Below, in pieces: positions 2-62,064 of a stretch of DNA of 64,000 nucleotides. The stretch's first letter is position 1. Each line of letters opens with the position of its first letter. Under the pieces are notes generated by a model. The model ran no database searches and was not told the origin of the DNA. It worked only from the letters and a program-made list of their open reading frames with translations. A program made the position numbers and the translations under genes. This stretch comes from Candidatus Poribacteria bacterium (lineage in GTDB: Bacteria > Poribacteria > WGA-4E > PCPOR2b), in contig OZ242270.1 of NCBI GenBank assembly GCA_965207095.1, forward strand, positions 687,378 through 751,377. Reading direction: 5' to 3'.

Positions 2-3000
2 GCAGAGATTTATCAATCACAGAGCAGAACGGCGGAAGCGGTTGCAGCAATTGGAGAGGCGGTGATGCTTGCGCCGGATGACCTTGAAGTGCGATATAAG
101 TTGGCACGTCATTATCTGAGTCAGCGGAATGACCCAGAGGCGATGGACGAAGCAATTCTTCATCTACAGGCGTTGCGCGAACGAACCCCGGCGAATGTGG
201 TGGTGCTGCTCAAATTGGCAAACGTACTGTTGCGGCGAGAACGGGTTGAAGAAGCGAAGCGGGTCTGCATGGAGTTGAATGCCCTGCTGTGGGATGCCGA
301 TGAAGAATTTCTGAAGTATCTGAAACAGGGATTGCTCTTGATTGACCAAGGTGATATCAAAGGGGCGGCTCGATATACTCAGATTTTCGAGAACGTCCAA
401 AAGCGAAGTCCCCGCTATCAACAGGGGATTGGCGAGTTAGTGACGAACATCTTGGGGCATCCAATCGAGGAATTCAGTTCTGGGTTCAGAGCACGGGTGC
501 AAGCAAAGCAGACCCCCGCAATCGGCGTCAGCTTTGTCGATGTAACTCAGGAGATTGGACTTGGGAATCTGGAGGGCAAACGTTCTGCAATTTTGCTGGC
601 AGACTACGATAAGGACGGCGATCCCGACCTGTATACCGCCCCTCCTGACTTAAACGGTGAACCTAATATCTTTCGGAATGAGGATGGGAAATTTGTCTCC
701 GCCGGAAAACTCGGACGGCTTGGAGACATCGCTGCCTTTGCGGATATTGATAAGGATGGCGATCTAGATCTCTGTCTGTCTGGAGACGATGGGCACATCC
801 TCCTTCGCAATGATGGTGAGGGCAATTTCACCGAGATAACAGGCTTTGACGGCGACCAATCAGTTCAGGATTCAGAGCAACAAGGGAAAGAGGTAGTTCT
901 ATTCGTCGACTATGATCATGACGGGGATCTAGATCTGTTCACAACTGGCAACCGGGTGGAGATGTACCGCAACAGTGCCGACAGCGTTTTCAGCGATGTT
1001 AGCAATCAGACCTTTATTCCATCGAAACAGCCCGGGGCACGGGATGCAGCACTCGCTGATTTTGACGATGACGGCGATATAGATCTATTTATCGTAAATG
1101 ATGCGACGGGCTGTACGCTCTTCACAAACCTACGTCAGGGAAAGATGCAGGCACTAACCGATGTGGTAGGTATATCCCAAAATGATACTTTCACAGCGGT
1201 CGCGGTTGGCGATTACGATAACGATGGTGATATTGACCTATTTCTGGCTACGGACGGTGAGACACCTCATCAGCTTTATAGAAACCGCGGTGATGGCACC
1301 TATGCTCTTGATGCGCGTTCGGACGAAGCAGCGATGGACGCTGCGAAGGGGGTACGTGGTTCAGATGCCCATTTCCTCGATTATGACAACGATGGCTTTT
1401 TGGATCTGTGCCTTATTGGTGAATCACGAGCAGCCGATGGTCGTGGCGTTTTCCTGTTTCGGAACGATGGGACGGGACGTTTCACCGATGCCTCAAATTT
1501 GTTGGCGGAGACGGTTCGGAGTGGCGGTGATGGCGTCGTTGGCGATTACGACAACGACGGGGACCTCGACCTCTTCCTGATTAATTCCAACGGTGGCGTA
1601 GCTGCGCTGCGCAACGAGGGCGGCAACCAAAACAGTTGGCTGGAAGTGAAACTGGAAGGTGTCGATGCCGGAAACAATAAAAACAATATAGACGGCATCG
1701 GCACAAAAGTGGAGCTCAAGGCAGGCGAGCTTTACCAGATGAAATATGTCACCGATCCAGTAACGCGTTTCGGTTTGGGAAAAGAGAAACAGGCGGATGT
1801 GCTACGGGTTGTCTGGACAAATGGGGTCCCGCAAAATGTCATCACCCCCAAATCCAACCAGCGCATACTCGAAAAGCAGGTGTTGAAGGGATCGTGTCCA
1901 TTCCTCTACGTCTATGACGGTGATGGTTACCAATTTGTAACGGATCTCTTGTGGCGCAGCCCGCTGGGGATGGCCACGCCGATGGGATTTCTCGCGGCTG
2001 CTGAAACCGCGGATTACGTCAAGATTCCCGGTGAACTGATGAAGCCGAAAGCGGGTGTGTATTCGATTCAGGTTACAGAGGAACTGTGGGAGACCGCCTA
2101 TTTCGATCTGGTCAAGCTGCTCGTCGTAGACCACCCCGCCGGCACACAAATCTTCACCGATGAGAGATACACACCGCCACCGTTTCCAGAGTTCAAGATC
2201 TACACGGCGAAAGAGATTCATTACCCACGCATAGCCCTCGATCACCAAGGATACGATGTCTCCGATGCACTCAAAGCGGTCGATTATCGCTATGCGATTG
2301 AACATGAACCGGGGGTGTTTCAGGGTGTCGTTGATCCCCACTTCATCGTGCTCGATTTGGGAGATGTGCCTGATGATCAAGGACTTACCTTATTCCTTAC
2401 CGGCTGGATTTTCCCAACAGATACCAGCATCAACTTTTCACTTTCGCAGAATCCGTCAATTAACCCAGCTTTCCCTCACCTACAGGTTCGTGATGAGGGC
2501 GGAAAGTGGCAGACGGTCATCAACCCCATCGGCATCCCTGCGGGAAAGAACAAGACCATCTGCATCGATCTGACGGGCAAATTCCTTTCGGACGATCGGC
2601 AGGTCAAGATTGCGACTGATATGCAGATTTACTGGGATTCAGCCTTCTTTGCTATTGGCGGGGAGGACGTGCCGACCCGTATCACGACGTTATCTCCGAG
2701 CCACGCAGACCTCCACTATCGCGGCTTTTCTAAGATGTATCGCCCAACCCCACACGCACCGCATCTGTTTGATTACAATGCGGTTGAAACAGCAGGACAG
2801 TGGCGAGATCTGGCGGGACATTATACCCGGTACGGGGAAGTAACATCCTTGATAGCGGAGATTGATGATATGTATGTCATCCTGAATGCGGGGGACGAGA
2901 TGACCGTCGAGTTTGATGCGGAGGCACTGCCGCCATTGGAAGCGGGTTGGACACGGGATTTTATTCTCTATAGCGATGGGTGGGACAAGGATGGCGACAT

Positions 3001-3160
3001 CAATACGCTGACTTCGCAGACGGTGGGACCGCTGCCATTTCACGGCATGTCCACCTACCCGTATCCCGCCTCGGAAAAGTATCCAGAGACCCCAGCGCAT
3101 CTCCGCTATCAACTCAAATACAACACGCGGCGTGTGACGCATGACCTGCCGCGCTTTTGA
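2..3160 (+). CDS. TPR + FG-GAP/VCBS-repeat protein with C-terminal ASPIC/UnbV domain (CRTAC1 family); 5' partial, no stop upstream of window start
   Basis: Open frame from nt 2. N-terminal TPR-like helices. More than 8 repeats of the D-x-D-x-DGDxDL calcium-binding FG-GAP motif (DYDKDGDPDL, DIDKDGDLDL, DYDHDGDLDL, DFDDDGDIDL, DYDNDGDIDL, DYDNDGFLDL, DYDNDGDLDL). C-terminal region typical of ASPIC/UnbV. Confidence 0.8.
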   Translation, partial: AEIYQSQSRTAEAVAAIGEAVMLAPDDLEVRYKLARHYLSQRNDPEAMDEAILHLQALRERTPANVVVLLKLANVLLRRERVEEAKRVCMELNALLWDADEEFLKYLKQGLLLIDQGDIKGAARYTQIFENVQKRSPRYQQGIGELVTNILGHPIEEFSSGFRARVQAKQTPAIGVSFVDVTQEIGLGNLEGKRSAILLADYDKDGDPDLYTAPPDLNGEPNIFRNEDGKFVSAGKLGRLGDIAAFADIDKDGDLDLCLSGDDGHILLRNDGEGNFTEITGFDGDQSVQDSEQQGKEVVLFVDYDHDGDLDLFTTGNRVEMYRNSADSVFSDVSNQTFIPSKQPGARDAALADFDDDGDIDLFIVNDATGCTLFTNLRQGKMQALTDVVGISQNDTFTAVAVGDYDNDGDIDLFLATDGETPHQLYRNRGDGTYALDARSDEAAMDAAKGVRGSDAHFLDYDNDGFLDLCLIGESRAADGRGVFLFRNDGTGRFTDASNLLAETVRSGGDGVVGDYDNDGDLDLFLINSNGGVAALRNEGGNQNSWLEVKLEGVDAGNNKNNIDGIGTKVELKAGELYQMKYVTDPVTRFGLGKEKQADVLRVVWTNGVPQNVITPKSNQRILEKQVLKGSCPFLYVYDGDGYQFVTDLLWRSPLGMATPMGFLAAAETADYVKIPGELMKPKAGVYSIQVTEELWETAYFDLVKLLVVDHPAGTQIFTDERYTPPPFPEFKIYTAKEIHYPRIALDHQGYDVSDALKAVDYRYAIEHEPGVFQGVVDPHFIVLDLGDVPDDQGLTLFLTGWIFPTDTSINFSLSQNPSINPAFPHLQVRDEGGKWQTVINPIGIPAGKNKTICIDLTGKFLSDDRQVKIATDMQIYWDSAFFAIGGEDVPTRITTLSPSHADLHYRGFSKMYRPTPHAPHLFDYNAVETAGQWRDLAGHYTRYGEVTSLIAEIDDMYVILNAGDEMTVEFDAEALPPLEAGWTRDFILYSDGWDKDGDINTLTSQTVGPLPFHGMSTYPYPASEKYPETPAHLRYQLKYNTRRVTHDLPRF

Positions 3161-3177
3161 GGAAAATCGGTCCTAAG

Positions 3178-3266
3178 AGGGAAACCACAAGTTTCTTAAT
3201 CCCGATTCATCGGGGGGTTGCCCCTACAAGAATCAACAGATGTAGGGGCAGGTCTTGTGCCTGCCC
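3178..3266. repeat. Structured intergenic repeat family D, copy 1 (multi-hairpin: CCCGATTCATCGGGG; CCCCTACA..TGTAGGGG; GGCAGG..CCTGCC)
   Basis: A near-identical ~90-nt sequence recurs at 12909-13024, seen by direct comparison. Confidence 0.5.
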
Positions 3267-3290
3267 AAAATACTTACACGAGGTCTTGAA

Positions 3291-4307
3291 ATGCAAGCCA
3301 AAGCACTTGTCTGTGACGAAAATCAGAACTTTAGCTACGCTGCTGTCACCCTGCCTGATCCGGGACCGGAACACATCGTGATACGAGCACTGTTCAGCGG
3401 GGTTAGTATTGGAACGGAGTTTGCCTTCATCCGCAACAAAATACTGACTTGGGGAGAGTATCCACTGTGCACCGGCTATCAAGGGGTCGGTGTCATTGAG
3501 CACGCCGGCGATAAGGTCGATAGGTTCAAAGCTGGCGATAAGGTCTATTACCGCGACAACCGGGAGGGGATGCGGTTATCCGATGGACAGGAGGTTTCAA
3601 CCGCAGCCGGTGTACACTGCTCTGCTGCGCTTGTCAAACCGCACACAACGCACGGCTTAGAATTGCTGCCCGACGATGTTCCCGCTGACGCTGCGAGTCT
3701 GTTTGTGATGCCAGCGGTCGGCTTGAACGGTGTTGACATGGCAAATCCCCGAATGGGGGATGTCGTCGCGGTCTACGGCGCGGGATTGGTCGGATTGGGG
3801 GTCATGGCGGCCTGTAGCCATCGGGGCTGCGTCGTCGTTGCCATTGATCTCGCGCAGAACAGGCTGGAGGTCGCCCAAAAACTTGGTGCGGATTACCTAA
3901 TCAACGGTTCTACCCAAAACGTGGTGGAAACGCTACAAAAGATTGCGCCTGAAGGTGCCGATGTGGTCTTTGAATCTACCGGTATTCCTGCGTGTGTCGA
4001 TCCGGCGATTGAGCTGTGTAGACGACACGGCAAGTTTATACTTCAAGGACATTACGGTACAGATCCGCTCTCCTACCAATTTGCACCGCCCCACGGCAAA
4101 CGATTGACGATGTTCTACCCGTGTGACGACGGCTTCGCGCCGTGCCGACGTGCCGTGCTCAAGAATATGGCGACGGGTGTCCTGCCGTGGCATCATACGA
4201 TTACACATCGCGTCGAAGCGGAGGATTCACCAGCCCTGTACGATGCGATTAATAAAGACAAAGCCCAGGATGTGGTCGGTGCGGTTATACGATGGTCGGA
4301 AGAGTGA
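3291..4307 (+). CDS. Zn-dependent alcohol dehydrogenase family (MDR superfamily) oxidoreductase
   Basis: GAGG RBS before the ATG at 3291 (the ORF track starts at 3255). Rossmann motif GAGLVGLGV. GroES-like N-terminal domain. Confidence 0.7.
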   Translation: MQAKALVCDENQNFSYAAVTLPDPGPEHIVIRALFSGVSIGTEFAFIRNKILTWGEYPLCTGYQGVGVIEHAGDKVDRFKAGDKVYYRDNREGMRLSDGQEVSTAAGVHCSAALVKPHTTHGLELLPDDVPADAASLFVMPAVGLNGVDMANPRMGDVVAVYGAGLVGLGVMAACSHRGCVVVAIDLAQNRLEVAQKLGADYLINGSTQNVVETLQKIAPEGADVVFESTGIPACVDPAIELCRRHGKFILQGHYGTDPLSYQFAPPHGKRLTMFYPCDDGFAPCRRAVLKNMATGVLPWHHTITHRVEAEDSPALYDAINKDKAQDVVGAVIRWSEE

Positions 4308-5228: not shown

Positions 5229-5372
5229 TATAGTGGACCTAAGGATTAATGAAACACGCCAAACCGATGCGGTTGGAAACCGCAGCTACTGGGTTCGAGT
5301 GAATGCGGTGCGGTTGGAAACCGCACCTACCGGAGGGCGAAAGTGTCTATTTATTTTTCGAATTCACAATAA
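5229..5372. mobile_element. MITE-like interspersed repeat family A, copy 1
   Basis: Shares termini (5' TATAGTGGACCTAAGGATTAATGAAACAC .. 3' GTGTCTATTTATTTTTCGAATTCACAATA) and internal palindromic modules TGCGGTTGGAAACCGCA x2 with the copies at 7736, 18849, 24285 and 61591. Confidence 0.6.
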
Positions 5373-7735: not shown

Positions 7736-7908
7736 TTATGGTAGATTTCAGAATTAATGAGACACTCCAAACCGGTTGCAGTTAGGAAACCGCTCCCTAC
7801 CGTTCTGCCGTTTGGTAGGCACTGTTTCCAACAGTGTCGATGCGGTGCGGTTGGAAACCGCACCTACCAAGGGCGAAAGCGTCTATTTATTTTTAGAATT
7901 CACCATAG
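7736..7908. mobile_element. MITE-like interspersed repeat family A, copy 2
   Basis: TATGGTAGATTTCAGAATTAATGAGACAC ... GTCTATTTATTTTTAGAATTCACCATAG. The 5' flank is identical over 30 nt to copy 5 at 61591. Confidence 0.65.
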
Positions 7909-8311
7909 TATGCGGGCCTGATGCTTCCATAAGCACCCTGACCCATTCTCGGTTCGTTACTGAAAAAACCGCTGAACAGAAACTACGCCTGTGAGGCAGA
8001 CAACAACGCCTTTTCGACTGCGGTAGGCAGTTGCATCAGATGAAAGCGGCTGGCTGTATAAGCATAGTCTTCCCCACTTTCATCTATAACGCGAATATAG
8101 CCATGTGCCGTAGCGTCATCGTCAGGGATCACACGATACAATTTCCCTACCTCAAGAGAAGCAGGGTATCCTTCATTACTGAGACATAGACCAAATTGCG
8201 GAAACTGGTTTTTCTATTTTATTCATCACTAAAACGTATTGGACCATCAACGAGACGGGTATCTGCTGCTATTAATAAAACCGCAGCTCCTGCCGCCATT
8301 GTAACGGCAGA

Positions 8312-8560
8312 TTAGGCATCAGCAGCTTGGTCCACAGTAGACATTGGATGGACTTTCATTGGTTCATAGTAGAGTAGCATGATCTGATCAGGACGCAAAC
8401 CTACTGACTCATAAGTGCGTCCGTCACGGTCACTGAATTCTACTTCAAAGGCTTTACCGTCTGCAAGAATTTCAACCACTGTACCGACTTGCCCACGTCT
8501 GAGATTATATTCAGGCAAATCGCCTATAAGGGCAACCCCATCGAATAGTTTGATATCCAT
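8312..8560 (-). CDS. DUF4926 domain protein
   Basis: Pattern FDGVALIGDLPEYNLRRGQVGTVVEILADGKAFEVEF is characteristic of DUF4926. Confidence 0.55.
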   Translation of the reverse strand: MDIKLFDGVALIGDLPEYNLRRGQVGTVVEILADGKAFEVEFSDRDGRTYESVGLRPDQIMLLYYEPMKVHPMSTVDQAADA

Positions 8561-8580
8561 GCTCTCTCACCTCCAGCATC

Positions 8581-8955
8581 CTACAATGGGTAACAAGATG
8601 TTAATCTTGGTGTATCTGAATCGTGTTCAATGATCCAAGCACTCCGAATCATCGCCTGTTTGCTGCGCCAAACAAGCATAAAGTCAACGACGTAGCGTTG
8701 ACCATAGGCATCACGTCGTCCCGGTTGTCCGTCGTGTGTCTTAATCGCTTCCAACAAAACGCTGCGCAATTCTTCTGCATCATCAGCGGTCATGCTAAGT
8801 GCAGCTATAAATAAGCGTGCTTTATGCTTTCCATGCTCATGCGTCGAATTCAGGCAGTAATCACGCAACTTGCGAATATCCACAACAGCATCTTCAGCGT
8901 TTGGTACTTTCATCACTGCTCCGAATTTCGGCATGCGGAAATACAGCAGCGACAT
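8581..8955 (-). CDS. DUF6883 domain protein (true start probably the internal Met at 8913)
   Basis: MKVPNAEDAVVDIRKLRDYCLNSTHEHGKHKARLF matches the DUF6883 N-terminal signature. DUF6883 and DUF4926 genes are commonly adjacent. Confidence 0.5.
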   Translation of the reverse strand: MSLLYFRMPKFGAVMKVPNAEDAVVDIRKLRDYCLNSTHEHGKHKARLFIAALSMTADDAEELRSVLLEAIKTHDGQPGRRDAYGQRYVVDFMLVWRSKQAMIRSAWIIEHDSDTPRLTSCYPL

Positions 8956-9062
8956 CCGGTTCTAACTGGATAACTTGTCCCCTGAAACTCTTCCGCTTAG
9001 GACCAACTTTTCTCACCCGTAAACTCTTCAAATCGCACTCTGGACGAAGTTCATCGTCCATC
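8894..9062 (-). CDS. Possible short BrnA/DUF4415-like antitoxin remnant (56 aa, not in ORF track)
   Basis: Own translation of the minus strand gives MDDELRPECDLKSLRVRKVGPKRKSFRGQVIQLEPDVAAVFPHAEIRSSDESTKR. The ..QLEPDVAAVFP.. segment resembles the RLDDDVAKIFP segment of the gene at 9318-9524. Confidence 0.25.
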
Positions 9063-9107
9063 TTGGTCTCAGTTTTCTGTATAATCTTCTCTTTTCCTTG
9101 CCTCTAA

Positions 9108-9311
9108 CTACACCCATAATTCTTGCGTATCAAAGCGAAGTGCTGCTTGAATCCCCTCTTTAGTTAAACGCGGATGTGCTTCAAGGAGTTGCTCAACAGT
9201 TTCACCCGCAGCGAGTTTTTCCAGAATCAATTCTACCGTGATACGCGTACCCGCAACGACGGGCTTCCCCATCATGATTGATGGATCGGATTGTATAAGT
9301 TTTGTGTCCAT
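9108..9311 (-). CDS. DUF433 domain protein (antitoxin-like)
   Basis: MMGKPVVAGTRITVELILEKLAAGETVEQLLEAHPRLTKEGIQAAL matches the DUF433 consensus (GKPvi.GTRi.ve.il..l..G.s.eeil..yP.lt.e.i.aal). Confidence 0.7.
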   Translation of the reverse strand: MDTKLIQSDPSIMMGKPVVAGTRITVELILEKLAAGETVEQLLEAHPRLTKEGIQAALRFDTQELWV

Positions 9312-9317
9312 AACGTG

Positions 9318-9524
9318 CTATGCCTTTTGTTGATGCTGGTCAATAATTTTTCCCAACGCTCTCAAAGCAGAGTTCACTGATTTAGCATCAGGAAATATTT
9401 TGGCAACATCATCGTCAAGCCTAACAATATTTGTGCCTTCCCGATATCTCTGGGCATATTTGCCCCGAACGCCTTTACTGAAATCGTATTCATCAAGTAA
9501 ATCCGGATCTTGTTGATTGAGCAT
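9318..9524 (-). CDS. BrnA/DUF4415-family antitoxin-like protein
   Basis: DEYDFSKGVRGKYA motif followed by IVRLDDDVAKIF and ALRAL, as in BrnA-type antitoxins. No BrnT (DUF497) gene is adjacent. Confidence 0.55.
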   Translation of the reverse strand: MLNQQDPDLLDEYDFSKGVRGKYAQRYREGTNIVRLDDDVAKIFPDAKSVNSALRALGKIIDQHQQKA

Positions 9525-12515: not shown

Positions 12516-12560
12516 GTAATCTAACAAAATCTAACAGAATCTAACACTTTTGCAAAAATT
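12508..12560. repeat. Iteron-like repeat family G copy (3 x ~11-bp ATCTAACA(A/G)A units + TTTTGCAAAA palindrome)
   Basis: AATCTAACAAAATCTAACAGAATCTAACACTTTTGCAAAAATT. Direct copy at 12795-12838, inverted copy at 23102-23140. Confidence 0.55.
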
Positions 12561-12794
12561 GGGGGGTTAGTCATTTTGTTTACACATCACATGTCGCCCC
12601 GATGGGGCTAATGGTTGGGGGTTACCAACCTGCGTTGGGCGACGGGCGAGGGGACCTCGCCCCTACGATTACGGACAATTTTACATAAATGTCAACACGC
12701 CCTAGTCATTTTTCACATGTCGCCCCGCTGGGGCTATGGGAATACATTGAAGTGTTGGGTTTCACGATCACGGTTCAGACAAACTACGCGCTGT

Positions 12795-12838
12795 CAAAAC
12801 CTAACAGAATCTAACAAAATCTAACACTTTTTACAAAA
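12795..12838. repeat. Iteron-like repeat family G copy
   Basis: AACCTAACAGAATCTAACAAAATCTAACACTTTTTACAAAAATT. Confidence 0.55.
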
Positions 12839-12908
12839 ATTCTATAAAGTAGGTCGAGATTCATATCTCGACACCCAAATGTCGATTTTAGAAAATCGAC
12901 CTACAATA

Positions 12909-13024
12909 GGGCAACCACAAGTTTCTTAATCCCGATTTATCGGGGGGTTGCCTCCTACAGGAATCAATCAAATGTAGGGGCAGGTTTCTTAATCTCGATC
13001 TATCGGGGTCTTGTGCCTGCCCAT
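12909..13024. repeat. Structured intergenic repeat family D, copy 2 (with an internal partial duplication)
   Basis: CCACAAGTTTCTTAATCCCGATTTATCGGGGGGTTGCCTCCTACAGGAATCAA..ATGTAGGGGCAGG, with an extra TTTCTTAATCTCGATCTATCGGGG module inserted inside the GGCAGG/CCTGCC hairpin. Confidence 0.5.
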
Positions 13025-13941: not shown

Positions 13942-13998
13942 GGTTGGTATCCGATAGATAACTACTGATATAATAGAGGGGTGCTCATAATTATTGTA

Positions 13999-14157
13999 GG
14001 AGTTAAGCACTTCAGTAAGGAATAATGATCGTTGTTCCCTACGGACTCCTTATGGAGCCTCTACTGTAGTTGCCCGATTTATCGGGCGTTGGGAACGGTG
14101 CCCAGCGGCGATAAATCGCTGAACTACATGGATTTGAGCGTTCAGCTGCGTAAGTCC
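13999..14157. repeat. ~160-nt multi-hairpin structured element family B, copy 1
   Basis: Perfect or near-perfect nested palindromes (GGAATAATGATCGTTGTTCC; CCCGATTTATCGGG; GGCGATAAATCGC; CTGTAGTT..AACTACA). Second copy at 14326-14484. Confidence 0.55.
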
Positions 14158-14325
14158 TACATTCTCTGAATCAGGATTTACAGGATTTAAGGGTTAACAG
14201 GATAATATATCTCCAATCCCCCTATAAAGACATACAGATGTTCGGGGTCAGGGAGGTGAAAACAGGAAGCTTTTAGCCCCAGCGGGGCGACAGGTGTAAC
14301 TTGAGCTAAATCTTTCTTAAGGATA

Positions 14326-14484
14326 GGAGTTACGCACTTCAGTAGGGAACGCAGATCTGCGTTCCCTACGGACTCCTTGTGGAGCCTATGCTGTAGTTGC
14401 CTGATTCATCAGGCGTCGGAGATTGTGTCCTACGGCGATAAATCGCCGAACTACAGGGCTCGGGGCATCCAACTGCGTAACTCC
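14326..14484. repeat. ~160-nt multi-hairpin structured element family B, copy 2
   Basis: Closed by a 10-bp stem GGAGTTACGC...GCGTAACTCC. Internal hairpins GGGAACGCAGATCTGCGTTCCC, CCTGATTCATCAGG, GGCGATAAATCGCC. Outer stem CTGTAGTT/AACTACAG. Confidence 0.55.
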
Positions 14485-14518
14485 TAAAGGAACTAAAAAG
14501 AACAGTTGAGGTGATAAT

Positions 14519-17307: not shown

Positions 17308-18589
17308 ATGGTGCAACGTGAAGATTGGAAACCTTTTCGTTTGGATCAATTGGGCTTTGTTGGACGCGGGAGGTCCCGAAGCCGACCAAGAAATGATCCT
17401 GCTCTCTACGGGGGACCTTATCCGCTATTTGAAACAGGGGATATTAAATCCACCGATCTTTACCTGTCAAAGTCAAAGAAAACTTACAATGAAAAGGGAC
17501 TAGCTCAAAGCAAACTGTGGAATCCTGGTACACTTTGCATCACGATTGCTGCTAATATCGCGGAAACTGCGATTCTGAAAATCAAGGCATGTTTTCCAGA
17601 TAGCGTCGTTGGTTTCGTTGCGGATCCTGAGACGACTGATGTAAGATATGTTAAATACTACATTGATTTCATCAAACTACAAATGCAAAACATATCGCGG
17701 GGAACAACACAAGATAACCTGAGTGTAGAGAAGTTGTTATCCTTTGAGTTTTTCGCGCCGCCGTTGAATACTCAACGCAAAATCGCCGCAGTCCTCAGCG
17801 CCTACGACGACCTGATCGAGAACAACACCCGCCGCATCGAAATCCTTGAGGAGATGGCGGGGGCAATCTACCGAGAATGGTTTGTCGAATTCCGCTTTCC
17901 GGGGCATGAGGGGGTGAAGATGGTGGAGTCGGAGTTGGGCTTGATACCGCAGGGGTGGGAGGTAAACAACTTCGGTGAGGTTTCGCAATTACATAGAGGA
18001 AAATCGTACAGAAGTCAGGAATTTAGTCGAAGATGCAAGAGGGAATTGCCATTCCTTAACCTGAAAAACATTGATCGGGAAGGCGGATATAGAATTGATG
18101 GTCTGAAATGGTATGATGGAAGAAACGCAGATTGATCTCAAAGACATTGTTATGGCACTGTGATTGACACAAGATGGGAGAATTGTTGCCCGTTCCACTC
18201 GTAATTCCCAATATAGGGCGCGAAATAATAATGTTTTCTATGGATCTTATTAAAATCAAACCGGAAGAATCATTTCAAACAGACTTTCCTTTTATGCCTT
18301 GTTCAGATACTCAAGCCTTACCTGATAGTACTCAAAGAGTATGCTAATGGCGCGAGTCCAAACATCTAAGCCCCAGTCATGTTCAATCATCTGAATTAGT
18401 TTGCCTCCCAGTGAATTAAGACAAAGATATGCTGAGATTGCAGAGTCCAGTTGGACCAACAAAGTGATTTGCTACTTAGAAAGAAAAACACCAACCTCCG
18501 CCAAACCCGCGATCTCCTACTCCCCAAACTGATCTCCGGCGAGATTGACGTATCCGAACTTGATATCGACACCGACTGATACTATTCCC
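17308..18589 (+). pseudogene. hsdS: Type I R-M specificity subunit HsdS, disrupted: TRD1 + central conserved region + first ~65 aa of TRD2 (17308-18135), then ~300 nt without coding capacity, then a conserved C-terminal 51-aa remnant (18436-18589) in the same frame
   Basis: Central conserved region LSVEKLLSFEFFAPPLNTQRKIAAVLSAYDDLIENNTRRIEILEEMAGAIYREWFVEF. C-terminal remnant [31 protein letters not shown] is the typical HsdS distal conserved region. The 18136-18435 segment has stops in all forward frames and is AT-rich. Confidence 0.7.
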
Positions 18590-18630: not shown

Positions 18631-18853
18631 ATGAACAGACCGAATTGTTATTGACGAAGCAGTTCTGACCGGAAAGCCTGTTATCAAGGGCACCCGTTTA
18701 GCTGTCGAGTTCATTATTGATCTACTGGCACACGGCTGGAGTGAAGCAGAGATTCTTGAAAATTACCCCGGTATTGTGGTTGAGGACATTCGAGCGTGTC
18801 TCGCTTACGCCAGTGCGACGTTACATGCCGAAGAAAATTATAATGGGTCTTAG
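18631..18853 (+). pseudogene. DUF433 domain protein; start apparently separated from the body by a +1 frameshift (MNRPN | RIVIDEAVLTGKPVIKGTRL...)
   Basis: RIVIDEAVLTGKPVIKGTRLAVEFIIDLLAHGWSEAEILENYPGIVVEDIRACLAYA matches DUF433. Its frame has no ATG after the preceding stop. An ATG at 18631 is in the +1 frame and reads MNRPNCY*. The TAG stop codon is formed by the first 3 nt of MITE copy 3. Confidence 0.5.
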
Positions 18854-18942
18854 AATTGATGAGACACACCAAACCGGTGCGGTTAGGAAACCGCACCTAC
18901 CGGGCGGGCGAAAGTGTCTATCTGTTTTTAGAATTCACCATA
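18849..18942. mobile_element. MITE-like repeat family A, copy 3 (short form, single palindromic module)
   Basis: TAGAATTGATGAGACACACCAAACCGGTGCGGTTAGGAAACCGCACCTACC..GAAAGTGTCTATCTGTTTTTAGAATTCACCATA. Confidence 0.6.
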
Positions 18943-22844: not shown

Positions 22845-23153
22845 TCACCGAAACGGTTCTGCTGGTGGATGGGTGTCATTCTGCGAAGGAAGGTGAATAG
22901 CTGCAGGGAGTCATTATCGAATACAGGACTTACGCACTTCAGTAGGCAGCGCGAGATTTTTTTAACCCCCTAAATCCCCCTTATCAGGGGGACTTTGACA
23001 AGTTCGCCAAGGTCGTATTGGTAATGTCTACTTACTTATTTCTCTAATTCACTCACAATCACTTCCAGCATGGAGCAATCACAAAACGGGAGCCACGCGC
23101 AATTTCTGTAAAAGTGTTAGATTTTGTTAGATTTTGTTCGGTGGTAAATTGTA

Positions 23154-23222: not shown

Positions 23223-24275
23223 TTGATGACACAAAAACCCGAAATAGATCCCACCGAATCCCGAAAAGGAAGAATCTATCTATGGCTTGCGATTCTGATA
23301 TTCGGTGCTGCTTCAGCGGTGGTCGCCAAGCTGATAATGATCGGGGAGGGCGCGCTGCTCGACGGACGGAATCCGATAGCGTTCTGCAATGTGCTGTTCG
23401 CTGGGAACGTCATCGCTGGCCTGACGCTATTGGCCATCTTCCACGGAGACTGGCGACCTTCTGAACTCAGAAAACTGACCTTCAAACAGTGGCTTGTGCA
23501 GCTTGTCTTGGCGGCGACATCGGGTGCGTTGGCACCGTCGCTGATGTTCCGTGCCGTTGAACAGACTTCGGTTACAAACATTGTGCTGATTGAAACGATC
23601 GAGATTCCGTTGGGGCTGTTCTTGGCGTGGCTGCTCTACCGCGAGAAATCGAGTTGGAGCGCAGTCATTGGGGCGGTCCTGGCTTTAATTGGCGTCGCGA
23701 CAACCATCTGGCTGCAGATGGGTCAACCCAGTGAAATGATGCAGCAAGGTCAGATGCGCGGCGGTATTGGACGCGGTGAAATCTACGCAACGGCTGGCAC
23801 GTTTCTTCTGGTGCTTGGGGCGGAACTGGGTCGCAAGCAACTTCGGACGATTCCGTTGGGGGTCTTCAGCGTTTTCCGCAATGTTGTCGGCTCGATCATC
23901 TTTCTGATCGTCGTGCTCATTATGCTCGGACCGGGACATTTTATGGATCTTTTCAGACCCGTCCTCTGGGGTTGGATGGCGTTGTATGGAAGTATCATCG
24001 TTGTGTGCGGTCAACTCTGTTGGTTTTCGGGCATCAAGCGGGTCACACCGGCTGATATTTCGTTAGCCTCCGCATTTTCACCGATCGCCGGAGTCATCTT
24101 CGCATTCCTGATACTCGGCGAAATCCCGATGATCGCGCAAATCATCGGTGGCGCGGTGATACTCTGCGGCATTGGGGTCGGGCTTGCCGGAGACCTTAAA
24201 TTCCCACATAGAGAAGAAAAACGGCTGCGGTCCGCCAAATCGGAAGACAAACCCAAGGCATTTACAGGCGTTTAG
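23223..24275 (+). CDS. DMT-superfamily (EamA-like) transporter
   Basis: About 10 predicted TM helices in two repeated halves. No other motif recognised. Confidence 0.5.
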   Translation: MMTQKPEIDPTESRKGRIYLWLAILIFGAASAVVAKLIMIGEGALLDGRNPIAFCNVLFAGNVIAGLTLLAIFHGDWRPSELRKLTFKQWLVQLVLAATSGALAPSLMFRAVEQTSVTNIVLIETIEIPLGLFLAWLLYREKSSWSAVIGAVLALIGVATTIWLQMGQPSEMMQQGQMRGGIGRGEIYATAGTFLLVLGAELGRKQLRTIPLGVFSVFRNVVGSIIFLIVVLIMLGPGHFMDLFRPVLWGWMALYGSIIVVCGQLCWFSGIKRVTPADISLASAFSPIAGVIFAFLILGEIPMIAQIIGGAVILCGIGVGLAGDLKFPHREEKRLRSAKSEDKPKAFTGV

Positions 24276-24284
24276 CACTATAGT

Positions 24285-24772
24285 GGACCTTAGAATTAAT
24301 GGAGGGGTGTGCATGTGTAGCAATCTAGGTAGATCAACTCTATTGCTGTGCATACACATTGCGCCCCTCTGGAGCGCAGGCATTGACTTTACCGCCGTTC
24401 TATAGACATATCGCTCCGCTGGAGCGAAGGTTTCTGTCGAATCATAAGGACTTTCGTGTATTCGGGTTGCTGAAAGGACATGAATCTGGTAGTAGTTCTG
24501 TTTGCTTATCAATATTTTCTGCGTAATCAACTGACTCCATGATTCAAACAATAATGATGTACACCCCTCAATTAATGAGACACGCAAAACCGGTGTGATT
24601 AGGATACCGCACCTACCCTTCTCCCGTTTAGTAGGCACTGTTTCCAACAGTGCCGATGCGGTGCGGTTGAAAACCGCACCTACCGGCTCCGATAATTAGT
24701 TTACCCCGATTTATCGGGGCGACCGAAACCGAGGGACGAAAGTGTCTATTCATTTTTCCAATTCACTATAGG
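24285..24772. mobile_element. MITE-like repeat family A, copy 4, interrupted by a nested ~259-bp element
   Basis: Family A 5' end TATAGTGGACCTTAGAATTAATG at 24285-24300 and the remaining body AATTAATGAGACACGCAAAACCGG...GTCTATTCATTTTTCCAATTCACTATAGG at 24561-24772. Confidence 0.6.
24301..24559. mobile_element. Nested small non-autonomous element (family E) with imperfect terminal inverted repeats, flanked by an 8-bp duplication AATTAATG
   Basis: Left end GGAGGGGTGTGCATGT, right end ATGTACACCCCTC (reverse-complement match 13/15). Host sequence AATTAATG is present on both sides. Interior contains the paired palindromes GCGCCCCTCTGGAGCGC and ATCGCTCCGCTGGAGCGAAGG. Confidence 0.5.
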
Positions 24773-24789
24773 TTCATTGAGGAGAAAAT

Positions 24790-25938
24790 ATGTCCGATTC
24801 CAAAAACCCAAAATATCGCGTTGGCATAATCGGTTGCGGGAGAGCGGGGACAGGTCGTGCCCGTGCCTTTGACATGCATCCGTTGTGCGGGGTAGTTGCT
24901 ATTGCCGATACCGATCCCGAAAATCTGGAATTAGGTTGCAAGCGTTTCAACGTTCCGGGATACACCAGCTTCGACGAGATGCTCAAGAACGAAGCGATCG
25001 ATATTGCGATGCCGGTCTTGCCGGTCCGACCGAATGCCGATGCCGTTGTCGCTTCAGCAGAAGCGGGCGTCAAGGCGATTTTCTGCGAGAAACCGCTCAC
25101 CGCCAGCCTCGCAGATGCCGACCGCATGGTAGAAGCGTGCGAATCGCGTGGTATCTACTTAGCCGCAGGGGTTGTTATCTCCAGCCATCCAGATTACCAG
25201 AAAGCCTACGAGTTGGTCGCAGCGGGCGAGATAGGCGAAATCCAGAGGATTAACCTGTACAGTATCAACAATCAGGGCGGGTGCCATGGGCTGAACTTAG
25301 TCCGAAAGTTCGCAGGCAAGGCACCCGTCGATTGGGTAATCGGTTGGGTGGACGGAGACCCCTTCAGCGACCATGAAGAGCCGTATGACGACGCGGAGAC
25401 AGGATTTGGGAAGATAGGCGGCTATATCCGCTTCTCCAACGGGGTTGAGTGTTTCAGCAACTACAAGGACATCGGATGGAAAGGAATCGAGATAGTAGGC
25501 TCTCAGGGAGTGATATATAACTGGAACAACACCGGCTTGGGACTACATCTTTTGAAGAACGATAACACGGAACGGGGACCTGCCCAGCTTAGAGAAGTCG
25601 AGGGTGTGTTTGAGGAATACGACGCGACGGAACGGGGTTATGATGATGAGGGATGGCTCGACCCGGGCATCCCAATGAAAGTAATTGTCCAGTCGATTGT
25701 CGATTCGCTGGAAACGGGTGTCCCGCTCAAGGTAACTACCGGGGACGACCTGCGCCATGCGTTAGAGATAGCCATCGGCTTGAGGGAATCCCATCGGCGG
25801 GGGCACACCCCTATCAAGTTTCCTATCGAGGATCGAAGTCTGGTGATGCAGCCCCAGCAATCACGGTGGCATTATAAGAAAAATATTTTAGGCAGGGAAC
25901 AGTATATGGAACATATGCGACAACAGAGGAGGGATTAA
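24790..25938 (+). CDS. Gfo/Idh/MocA family oxidoreductase
   Basis: N-terminal Rossmann motif VGIIGCGRAG. GAGGAG RBS. Confidence 0.7.
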   Translation: MSDSKNPKYRVGIIGCGRAGTGRARAFDMHPLCGVVAIADTDPENLELGCKRFNVPGYTSFDEMLKNEAIDIAMPVLPVRPNADAVVASAEAGVKAIFCEKPLTASLADADRMVEACESRGIYLAAGVVISSHPDYQKAYELVAAGEIGEIQRINLYSINNQGGCHGLNLVRKFAGKAPVDWVIGWVDGDPFSDHEEPYDDAETGFGKIGGYIRFSNGVECFSNYKDIGWKGIEIVGSQGVIYNWNNTGLGLHLLKNDNTERGPAQLREVEGVFEEYDATERGYDDEGWLDPGIPMKVIVQSIVDSLETGVPLKVTTGDDLRHALEIAIGLRESHRRGHTPIKFPIEDRSLVMQPQQSRWHYKKNILGREQYMEHMRQQRRD

Positions 25939-61590: not shown

Positions 61591-62064
61591 TTATGGTAGA
61601 TTTCAGAATTAATCAGACACTGCAAATCGGCGAAGTTAGAGCCTGTTTTAAAAGTGAAACAGTCATCTATAGGAAGTTGTTCACATGTCGCCCCGCTGGG
61701 GCTTAGGTTGTTTGTTTGTCCTGTATTCTATAAACATGTCGCCCCGCTGGGGCTTAGGGTCTGTTTTAAGAGTAGGTGAAACGGTCATCTTTTGCCATTC
61801 TATGGGCACAATCAACCGATTTTGAGAGTATTTACCCGTAAACTGACAACTTTCAGAGATTATTTGGATTTTTCAAACAGGTTCTTAGAAACCTCGCCTA
61901 CCGGGGATGGAAAAATCCGGGCTATGACACCGGTAGGGGCGGTTTCTAACCGCACCGCATAGGCTTGTCCCGCTTCTCGGGATCCCGACCTGCCGGAATT
62001 GGACACAGCGCCTACCAAACATGGGGAGTGAAAGTGTCTATCTGTTTTTACGATTCACTGTAGG
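61591..62064. mobile_element. MITE-like repeat family A, copy 5 (long composite form, ~470 bp)
   Basis: Same termini (TATGGTAGATTTCAGAATTAATCAGACAC ... GTGTCTATCTGTTTTTACGATTCACTGTAGG). Interior carries two ACATGTCGCCCCGCTGGGGCTTAGG units 50 bp apart. Confidence 0.55.

Follow-up and report, generated by a model that had tools for sequence, protein, structure and literature searches.

Miniature inverted-repeat transposable elements (MITEs) described in bacteria include the Correia elements of Neisseria, RUP of Streptococcus and Nezha of cyanobacteria, and the nesting of one MITE in another is well described in plants. Among insertion sequences (ISs), members of the IS982 family typically have ends that begin with AC, target-site duplications (TSDs) of 3-9 bp and a protein of ~270-310 amino acids (aa), and the ISH1 group of IS5 generates 8-bp TSDs. 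Here we analyze a stretch of 64,000 nucleotides (nt) from a Candidatus Poribacteria genome (contig OZ242270.1, positions 687,378 to 751,377; hereafter the window), in which a small element of a family that we call E interrupts the fourth copy of another short repeat, family A. Judged by its sequence, E is a MITE nested in another MITE, a phenomenon that is already known. Our overall reading is that E is a non-autonomous MITE inserted in the left terminal inverted repeat (TIR) of a family-A MITE, that A itself entered at a TA within the 24 nt that separated the genes for an EamA transporter and a Gfo/Idh/MocA oxidoreductase, and that E was most likely mobilized in trans by the ~333-aa DDE transposase of an IS of ~1.1 kb; we put the probability of this reading at roughly 85%.

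The E insert spans 268 bp, with positions counted from the first letter of the window. The parts of the two nested elements are these:

24279-24280, no strand: left TA target duplication of family-A copy 4
24281-24768, plus strand: family-A MITE, copy 4, 488 bp as found (repeat families D2, D4, D6-D8 and D11)
24294-24301, no strand: left TSD copy of E, AATTAATG, inside the left TIR of family A
24302-24569, no strand: family-E MITE, 268 bp, non-coding and non-autonomous
24302-24314, plus strand: left TIR of E, GAGGGGTGTGCAT, with which the TIRs of the 1.1-kb ISs agree over their first 13 bases
24356-24380, plus strand: first internal hairpin repeat of E, ACATTGCGCCCCTCTGGAGCGCAGG (repeat family D5; also seen in local BLAST), a diverged copy of a genome-wide short repeat
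24406-24430, plus strand: second internal hairpin repeat of E, ACATATCGCTCCGCTGGAGCGAAGG, terminator-like at 24411-24427 in a pattern scan
24557-24569, minus strand: right TIR of E, GAGGGGTGTACAT, with a G-to-A variant
24570-24577, no strand: right TSD copy of E, AATTAATG
24769-24770, no strand: right TA target duplication of family-A copy 4

The two copies of AATTAATG that flank E match perfectly. At the left junction GGACCTTAGAATTAATG is joined to GAGGGGTGTGCATGTGTAGC, and at the right ATGATGTACACCCCTC is joined to AATTAATGAGACAC (extended, AATAATGATGTACACCCCTC to AATTAATGAGACACGC). The bases just outside the two copies differ, G versus C on the left and G versus A on the right, which fixes the length of the duplication at exactly 8 bp. 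An original prediction, made from the letters of the sequence, had called this duplication correctly; its insert length of 259 bp and its inverted repeat of 13/15 need correction, as we measure 268 bp and find the ends GAGGGGTGTGCAT and GAGGGGTGTACAT identical at 12 of 13 positions, or at 12 of 15 when extended. The G-to-A variant in the right TIR recurs in the closest relative of E (locus L002, below) and is thus a trait of this subfamily. Open reading frames (ORFs) in E reach at most 55 aa and are spurious, the largest overlapping the hairpin repeats. The insert is single-copy in the window, and the terminal 13-mer, with up to one mismatch allowed, matches there only at E's own two ends. An Rfam scan of 23500-25500 returned no credible family.

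The hairpins of E belong to a dispersed repeat, (CTATAR)ACATGTCGCCCCGCTGGGGCT, which also occurs in loci L014 and L016 and which we find in the window at 12589, 12715, 14274(-), 16148(-), 16196(-), 24356, 24406, 61683 and 61734. The copies lie mostly in direct doublets ~50 nt apart, either free-standing or inside MITEs of several families. They look like repetitive extragenic palindromic (REP) sequences, yet the doublets are direct rather than inverted.

The outer element can be reconstructed without E. Subtracting the insert and one copy of AATTAATG leaves 212 bp of copy 4's own sequence between the imperfect TIRs TAGTGGACCTTAGAATTAATGAGACAC and GTGTCTATTCATTTTTCCAATTCACTA; this sequence aligns with copies 1-3 in an unbroken, colinear fashion, and at the restored junction TTAGAATTAATGAGACAC the four other family-A copies show 1-3 mismatches, against a chance expectation of 0.06 matches. 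The predicted restoration of family A on excision is therefore upheld; the element reaches ~13 bases beyond the 5' end that had been quoted, and the TA duplications had been overlooked. Other family-A copies carrying the same segment had been named as the observation that would count against nesting, and none of the four contains E. In the window the family is represented five times, always on the plus strand (~5229-5368, 7737-7904, 18839-18939, 24281-24768 and 61592-62060), with 99-212 bp of own sequence in a modular arrangement of varying length, TA on both sides in all five, and imperfect TIRs of ~27 nt (T[AG][GA]T[GA]G... and ...CA[CA][ACT][AG]). Because of the TA flanks and imperfect TIRs, family A behaves like a TA-duplicating MITE of the IS630/Tc1-mariner kind. 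It shares with MITEs derived from those elements its flanks, its TIR length and its size, and the orthologous empty site described below has a single TA or TG; no IS630-type transposase with these ends came to light, no search aimed at one having been made.

Several further features of family A deserve mention. The common orientation of its five copies, held despite the directions of neighboring genes, may be chance (1 in 16). Copy 5 (61592-62060) contains a different insert of ~255 bp at about 61631-61890. The ends of this insert, TTAGAGCCTGTTTTAAAAG and, as reverse complement, CTAAGAACCTGTTTGAAAAA, are TIR-like, and it holds internal direct repeats and, twice, a perfect ACATGTCGCCCCGCTGGGGCTTAGG hairpin. 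Since local BLAST finds only a 25-nt hairpin in common between this insert and E, the insert probably represents a third family, nested in its turn. In copy 4, an additional ~47 nt (24687-24733) include the hairpin CCCCGATTTATCGGGG, which resembles the repeat GTTTCTTAATCCCGATTYATCGGGG at 3175-3222, 12905-12952 and 12968-13015. Family A appears to be built of interchangeable hairpin modules.

Elements with the ends of E are not confined to the window. We scanned a collection holding one genome per prokaryotic species with the pattern GAGGGGTGTNCAT-N(227-257)-ATGNACACCCCTC, for which we estimate ~0.1 chance matches, and recovered 19 elements of 253-279 bp from at least six related metagenome-assembled genomes (MAGs). 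By MAG label, 14 lie in five Poribacteria MAGs, four in one Latescibacterota MAG and one in an unclassified MAG. The collection does not include the source genome, as the absence of the window copy from the matches indicates. Perfect TSDs of at least 8 bp flank 14 of the 19, each different and AT-rich, and several of the other five have flanks that agree at 6-7 of 8 positions. We distinguish at least five subfamilies, with unrelated interiors and common TIRs, and this restrictive pattern finds up to five copies per genome (one in the 64-kb window of the source genome). Copies at different loci of the same genome are 99.6-100% identical and must therefore have been mobilized recently there. Six complete MAGs (OX638351, OZ241983, OZ244847, OZ244950, OZ220744 and CBDCUX01) contain identical MITE copies. 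The subfamily of the window copy has one other sampled member, L002 in MAG OZ220744, which is 86% identical, occupies a different site and has the TSD ACATATAT. Pieces of family A are present in L002, L016 and L019, so those MAGs have this repeat family in common with the window. The expectation that other copies with GAGGGGTGT.CAT ends would exist is thereby confirmed in Poribacteria-type MAGs. The same holds for the claim that a TIR element generating 8-bp TSDs had transposed, and with the same ends and 8-bp duplications in 19 elements elsewhere the configuration in the window is not a product of chance.

These copies also bear on the possibility that the 268-bp segment is an ancestral part of family A, lost from the other copies, with AATTAATG repeated by chance or through recombination. 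The modular make-up of family A and the extra internal material of copy 5, with its hairpin of the same type, could be read in this way. We nevertheless consider it extremely improbable: the segment is missing from all four other family-A copies, elements with the same ends stand at 19 loci outside family A with 8-bp TSDs of their own, the closest relative sits at another site with another TSD, and what copy 5 contains has nothing beyond the 25-nt hairpin in common with E.

One of the related loci, L016, has a tandem segmental duplication (1760-2420) that spans the left flank and left part of its E copy, the second copy being truncated, which indicates local rearrangement at a MITE. A third TIR there, considered as an IS end, was rejected as part of this duplication and its truncated copy.

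A metagenome scan with the consensus 17-mer end GAGGGGTGTGCATAAAT yielded at least 120 loci and, with them, coding elements that have the same ends as E. Among the matches listed, at least 12 contigs have two inverted GAGGGGTGTGCAT ends 1099-1152 bp apart. Each of these 12 ISs has one ORF, of 292-335 aa (331-335 aa in 10 of the 12), between ends of the form GAGGGGTGTGCAT[AAAT], with TIRs of 13-17 nt that start GAGGGG. Two more full-length elements, L146 and L147, were among four contigs retrieved via homologues of the transposase. Transposase ORFs between matching ends, which the original prediction had looked forward to, thus exist in at least 12 metagenome elements of ~1.1 kb and in L146 and L147. 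Perfect 8-bp TSDs flank three of the 14 ISs: AATTAGAT, AAATAATT and ACCTAGAT, in the order L100, L146, L147. Among the matches listed, the transposase adjoins the TIR in 24 of the 120 loci; many of the TIR-bearing contigs end 60-90 nt inside the element, as expected because the repeat breaks assemblies. Some other MITE subfamilies retain the asymmetry of the IS ends, with a left inverted repeat of the IRL type (CATAAAT) and a right one of the IRR type (CATAATTCG).

The 12 transposases are 47-98% identical and have an invariant D, D, E triad in the contexts D[GK]SL, [GAT]D[DN] and T..EP.F. They match Pfam DDE_Tnp_1 (PF01609; 55.3 bits, cutoff 23) and DDE_Tnp_1_3 (PF13612; 27.8 and 35.4 bits, cutoff 27), the latter also precomputed for many homologues. 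The best NCBIfam match is IS982 (NF033520), at 45.6 and 59.9 bits where the cutoff is 130; matches to the IS1182, IS5, IS4, ISNCY and IS1634 models are weaker. By these model scores the partner IS is placed in the IS4/IS5-type DDE_Tnp_1 superfamily with IS982 as its nearest family; as it fails the IS982 threshold we do not file it there, and it may represent an unnamed subgroup or family. Homologues are numerous, amounting to 1707 protein clusters at E <= 1e-5, none with more than a generic name (hypothetical protein, 'Transposase DDE domain', 'DDE family transposase'). A tblastn search of 72,556 plasmids (E <= 1e-3) gave a single record, a 30% match annotated 'transposase'.

Two sets of contigs illustrate the varied contents and surroundings of elements with such ends. 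Loci L044 (5274-5730) and L053 (40-496) carry a 457-bp element with GAGGGGTGTGCA ends and an 8-bp TSD (AATACTAT in L053); its ORF of ~120 aa looks by eye like a winged-helix DNA-binding protein, which would make this a MITE-sized element with a passenger gene. In L146 (1904-3970), the IS at 2415-3521, with the TSD AAATAATT, lies between two fragments of an IS91-type (Y2_Tnp) transposase gene, showing that the family often inserts in other mobile elements.

The MITEs and the ISs also agree in the sites that they enter. We pooled the 14 bases outside 158 distinct ends into a target logo. Positions -14 to -9 show no signal; it begins exactly at -8 and runs A (.75), N, T (.55), T (.80), A (.85), A (.52), N, T (.89), giving the palindromic consensus ANTTAANT (A-N-T-T-A-A-N-T). 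A signal that starts at -8 independently confirms the 8-bp stagger and ties the MITEs to the IS. The strict motif occurs four times in the 64 kb of the window. Its relaxed form, A.TTAA.., occurs 44 times and is enriched outside ORFs of at least 200 aa, with 28 of the 44 sites in the 23% of the window that lies there. Four of the five family-A copies have an A.TTAA.. site in the left TIR, so the nesting is unsurprising. Family A was hit because its TIR contains AATTAATG, which agrees with five of the six specified positions of the consensus.

Could another IS family have moved E? The IS1595, ISL3, IS256 and IS6 types have TSDs of 8 or 8-9 bp, often at AT-rich sites, and would fit a real MITE with the observed duplication; moreover, none of the Poribacteria sequences searched contains an IS982-like transposase. 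We think this improbable, because every coding element found with these ends encodes the same DDE_Tnp_1 protein (12 complete, with the 24 of 120 listed loci in which it is TIR-adjacent), because the ISs and MITEs share the 8-bp TSD and the ANTTAANT target, and because the NCBIfam models for these four types gave no match at E <= 0.01. IS1595, ISL3 and IS256 had been considered as partners and were dropped when a DDE_Tnp_1 IS with the same ends was found instead.

The genes on either side of the nested elements allow the site to be compared with its unoccupied counterparts:

23223-24275, plus strand: upstream gene, EamA-type transporter (Pfam EamA, 98.7 bits; stop codon TAG, 24273-24275); translation may in fact begin downstream of 23223
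24790-25938, plus strand: downstream gene, Gfo/Idh/MocA oxidoreductase (Pfam GFO_IDH_MocA, 80.5 bits)

Orthologues of the oxidoreductase were found in four contigs (L020-L023; protein identities of 94, 87, 86 and 86%). The EamA gene precedes it in L021, L022 and L023, in the order seen in the window, and the start of L020 falls within sequence alignable to the last part of the EamA gene of the window. Each of the four loci has a spacer of exactly 24 nt with neither A nor E; in a BLASTN alignment, 503 nt of the window face 13 nt of L020. Taking A and one TA out of the window leaves TTAG-CACTAGGTTCATTGAGGAGAAAAT-ATG, again a 24-nt spacer, colinear with TTAG-AACTGAGTTCACCAAGGAGAGAAT-ATG of L022. 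From the empty orthologous spacers it follows that two insertions took place in this lineage, A at a TA first and E inside A afterwards; together they lengthened the intergenic spacer from 24 to 514 nt.

The same comparison speaks to whether the junctions might be an artefact, two repeats of a MAG having been joined into a chimera during assembly. Repeats are dense in this region, and short-read contigs with the related IS often have mismatched flanks. A chimera would not produce a precise 8-bp duplication that fits both the TSD length and the target consensus of the family, family A is colinear on both sides of E, and the flanking genes are syntenic with the four orthologous contigs, all of which makes an artefact very unlikely.

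Genes separated by the 24-nt ancestral-type spacer were probably co-transcribed, and its expansion could change the expression of the downstream oxidoreductase gene. One may therefore ask whether A and E were co-opted as a terminator and promoter that uncoupled the two genes and were kept for that reason. The close spacing in relatives would fit, as would the terminator-like hairpin at 24411-24427 (plus strand) in E and a promoter-like site in A (TTGAAA-18-GATAAT, 24667-24696, 94 nt upstream of the ATG). At this locus, though, the numbers of promoter-like and terminator-like matches do not exceed shuffle expectation. Such co-option, which we regard as a minority prospect given the sequence, would in any case be compatible with an origin by transposition and would add only a consequence to it.

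Returning to an E moved in trans by the DDE transposase of the ~1.1-kb IS, several observations weigh against this account. No such transposase, intact or degraded, was found in the 64 kb of the window or in related Poribacteria DNA totalling 152 kb: the ten candidate ORFs of the window encode metabolic, transport or restriction-modification proteins, and the partner transposase, used as a tblastn query, had no match in the window or in L001-L019. The IS contigs have no nucleotide similarity to the window except for one 37-nt match in L111, so the hosts of the IS may be other lineages. Only the 13-17-bp TIR is common to E and the IS, the subterminal sequence being different, and E is thus not demonstrably an internal-deletion derivative. 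In most of the short-read IS contigs the two flanking 8-mers resemble each other without being identical, which we attribute to chimeric assembly across a multi-copy repeat. The last base of the window TSD, G, is rare in the logo (4%), and the junctions of E are those of the assembled sequence.

As neither the window nor the related Poribacteria loci yielded a transposase, it is from the shared ends, TSD length and target that we infer mobilization in trans in this genome, by an enzyme that would be encoded there now or would have been once. In the sequence of events that we propose, family A would have inserted at a TA of the 24-nt spacer, with duplication of the TA. The ~333-aa DDE transposase of a ~1.1-kb IS could then have acted on E in trans by binding its 13-17-bp TIRs, and the ends of E would have been joined to the target with an 8-bp stagger at a site resembling A-N-T-T-A-A-N-T. 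Host gap repair would have produced the 8-bp duplication. A transposase of this class presumably moved this particular copy of E, and the reaction may have been of the cut-and-paste or the copy-out kind.

Two further searches for these ends came back empty: a scan of viral contigs for the 17-mer TIR gave no match, and neither did a metagenome scan for a 22-mer right-end motif that is common to several Poribacteria subfamilies. A full-text literature search combining Poribacteria with 'miniature inverted-repeat' found no paper.

Elsewhere in the window there are other repeats and small elements. At 13976-14200, a degenerate E-type end, GAGGGGTGCTCATAATTATTGT, directly abuts a 163-bp element (13997-14159); beyond that element comes CTGAATCAGGATTTACAGGATTTAAGG, where the subterminal sequence of the L008-type E subfamily continues. 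This looks like an old E-type end interrupted by another small element. The 163-bp element has two copies, 13997-14159 and 14324-14486, which are 80% identical and form a MITE-like family with TIRs AGGAGTTA(A/C)GCAC and GCGTAA(G/C)TCCT. Both lie upstream of a type I restriction-modification locus with a specificity subunit at 17308-18135 and an ORF from 14519 that is HsdM-like by eye. Runs of a 10-nt unit, AATCTAACA(A/G), followed by CTTTT(T)(G/A)CAAAAAT, occur in intergenic DNA at 12518-12558, 12788-12848 and 23100-23142, one of them inverted, and are like iterons or operators in appearance. Low-GC DNA beside family-A copy 2 (7900-9500, with the gene pairs at 8312-9524) holds small minus-strand ORFs that, judged by eye from their translations, look like two toxin-antitoxin pairs.

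The locus offers a textbook-quality record of two successive transpositions, with both duplications and the orthologous empty site kept, in a lineage without a cultured representative. Genomes of this lineage carry several recently active MITE families. The target consensus and the candidate transposase class will aid genome annotation, since repeats of this kind break short-read assemblies.

Among described ISs, the partner element resembles IS982 in its length of ~1.1 kb, its single ORF and its DDE_Tnp_1-type transposase, for which IS982 is the best NCBIfam model and DDE_Tnp_1_3 passes its cutoff. The TSD range of IS982 takes in the 8 bp seen here. The partner IS differs from that family in its score (45.6 and 59.9 bits where 130 are required), in ends that start with GAG instead of AC, and in a protein of ~333 aa (325-335 aa), longer than is typical. 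With IS5 (ISH1, IS903-like) and IS4 it shares the DDE_Tnp_1 domain and the ~1.1-kb size, with the ISH1 group in particular the 8-bp TSD, and it gives weak matches to the IS5_4, IS5_3 and IS4_1 models, at 36, 22 and 21 bits versus cutoffs of 140, 110 and 115. It is tempting to speculate, at somewhat less than even confidence, that the ~1.1-kb GAGGGGTGTGCAT(AAAT) IS is an undescribed family or deep subfamily. It would be defined by a 333-aa DDE transposase below every NCBIfam IS cutoff, a strict 8-bp TSD and the palindromic ANTTAANT target; it would be abundant in environmental metagenomes, nearly absent from plasmids, and the source of many unrelated MITE families of 141-457 bp (one with a small passenger ORF) across Poribacteria-type genomes, with the window copy as its first-noticed trace.

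Among described MITEs, E falls readily into place. We found in it every feature of a MITE that we tested for: small size (below ~600 bp), no transposase gene, TIRs, a TSD of fixed length, further copies, an empty site and, in metagenome contigs, an autonomous partner. Like other bacterial MITEs it is short, non-coding, multi-copy and intergenic and has TIRs in common with an IS, and its preference for AT-rich targets leads it, as theirs does, into other elements. The insertion of E in A is therefore a clear and ordinary case of nesting that makes no conceptual addition to transposon biology. What sets E apart from Correia, RUP and Nezha elements is the combination of its TIR GAGGGGTGTGCAT, an 8-bp TSD at ANTTAANT and Poribacteria-type hosts, which matches none of the three.

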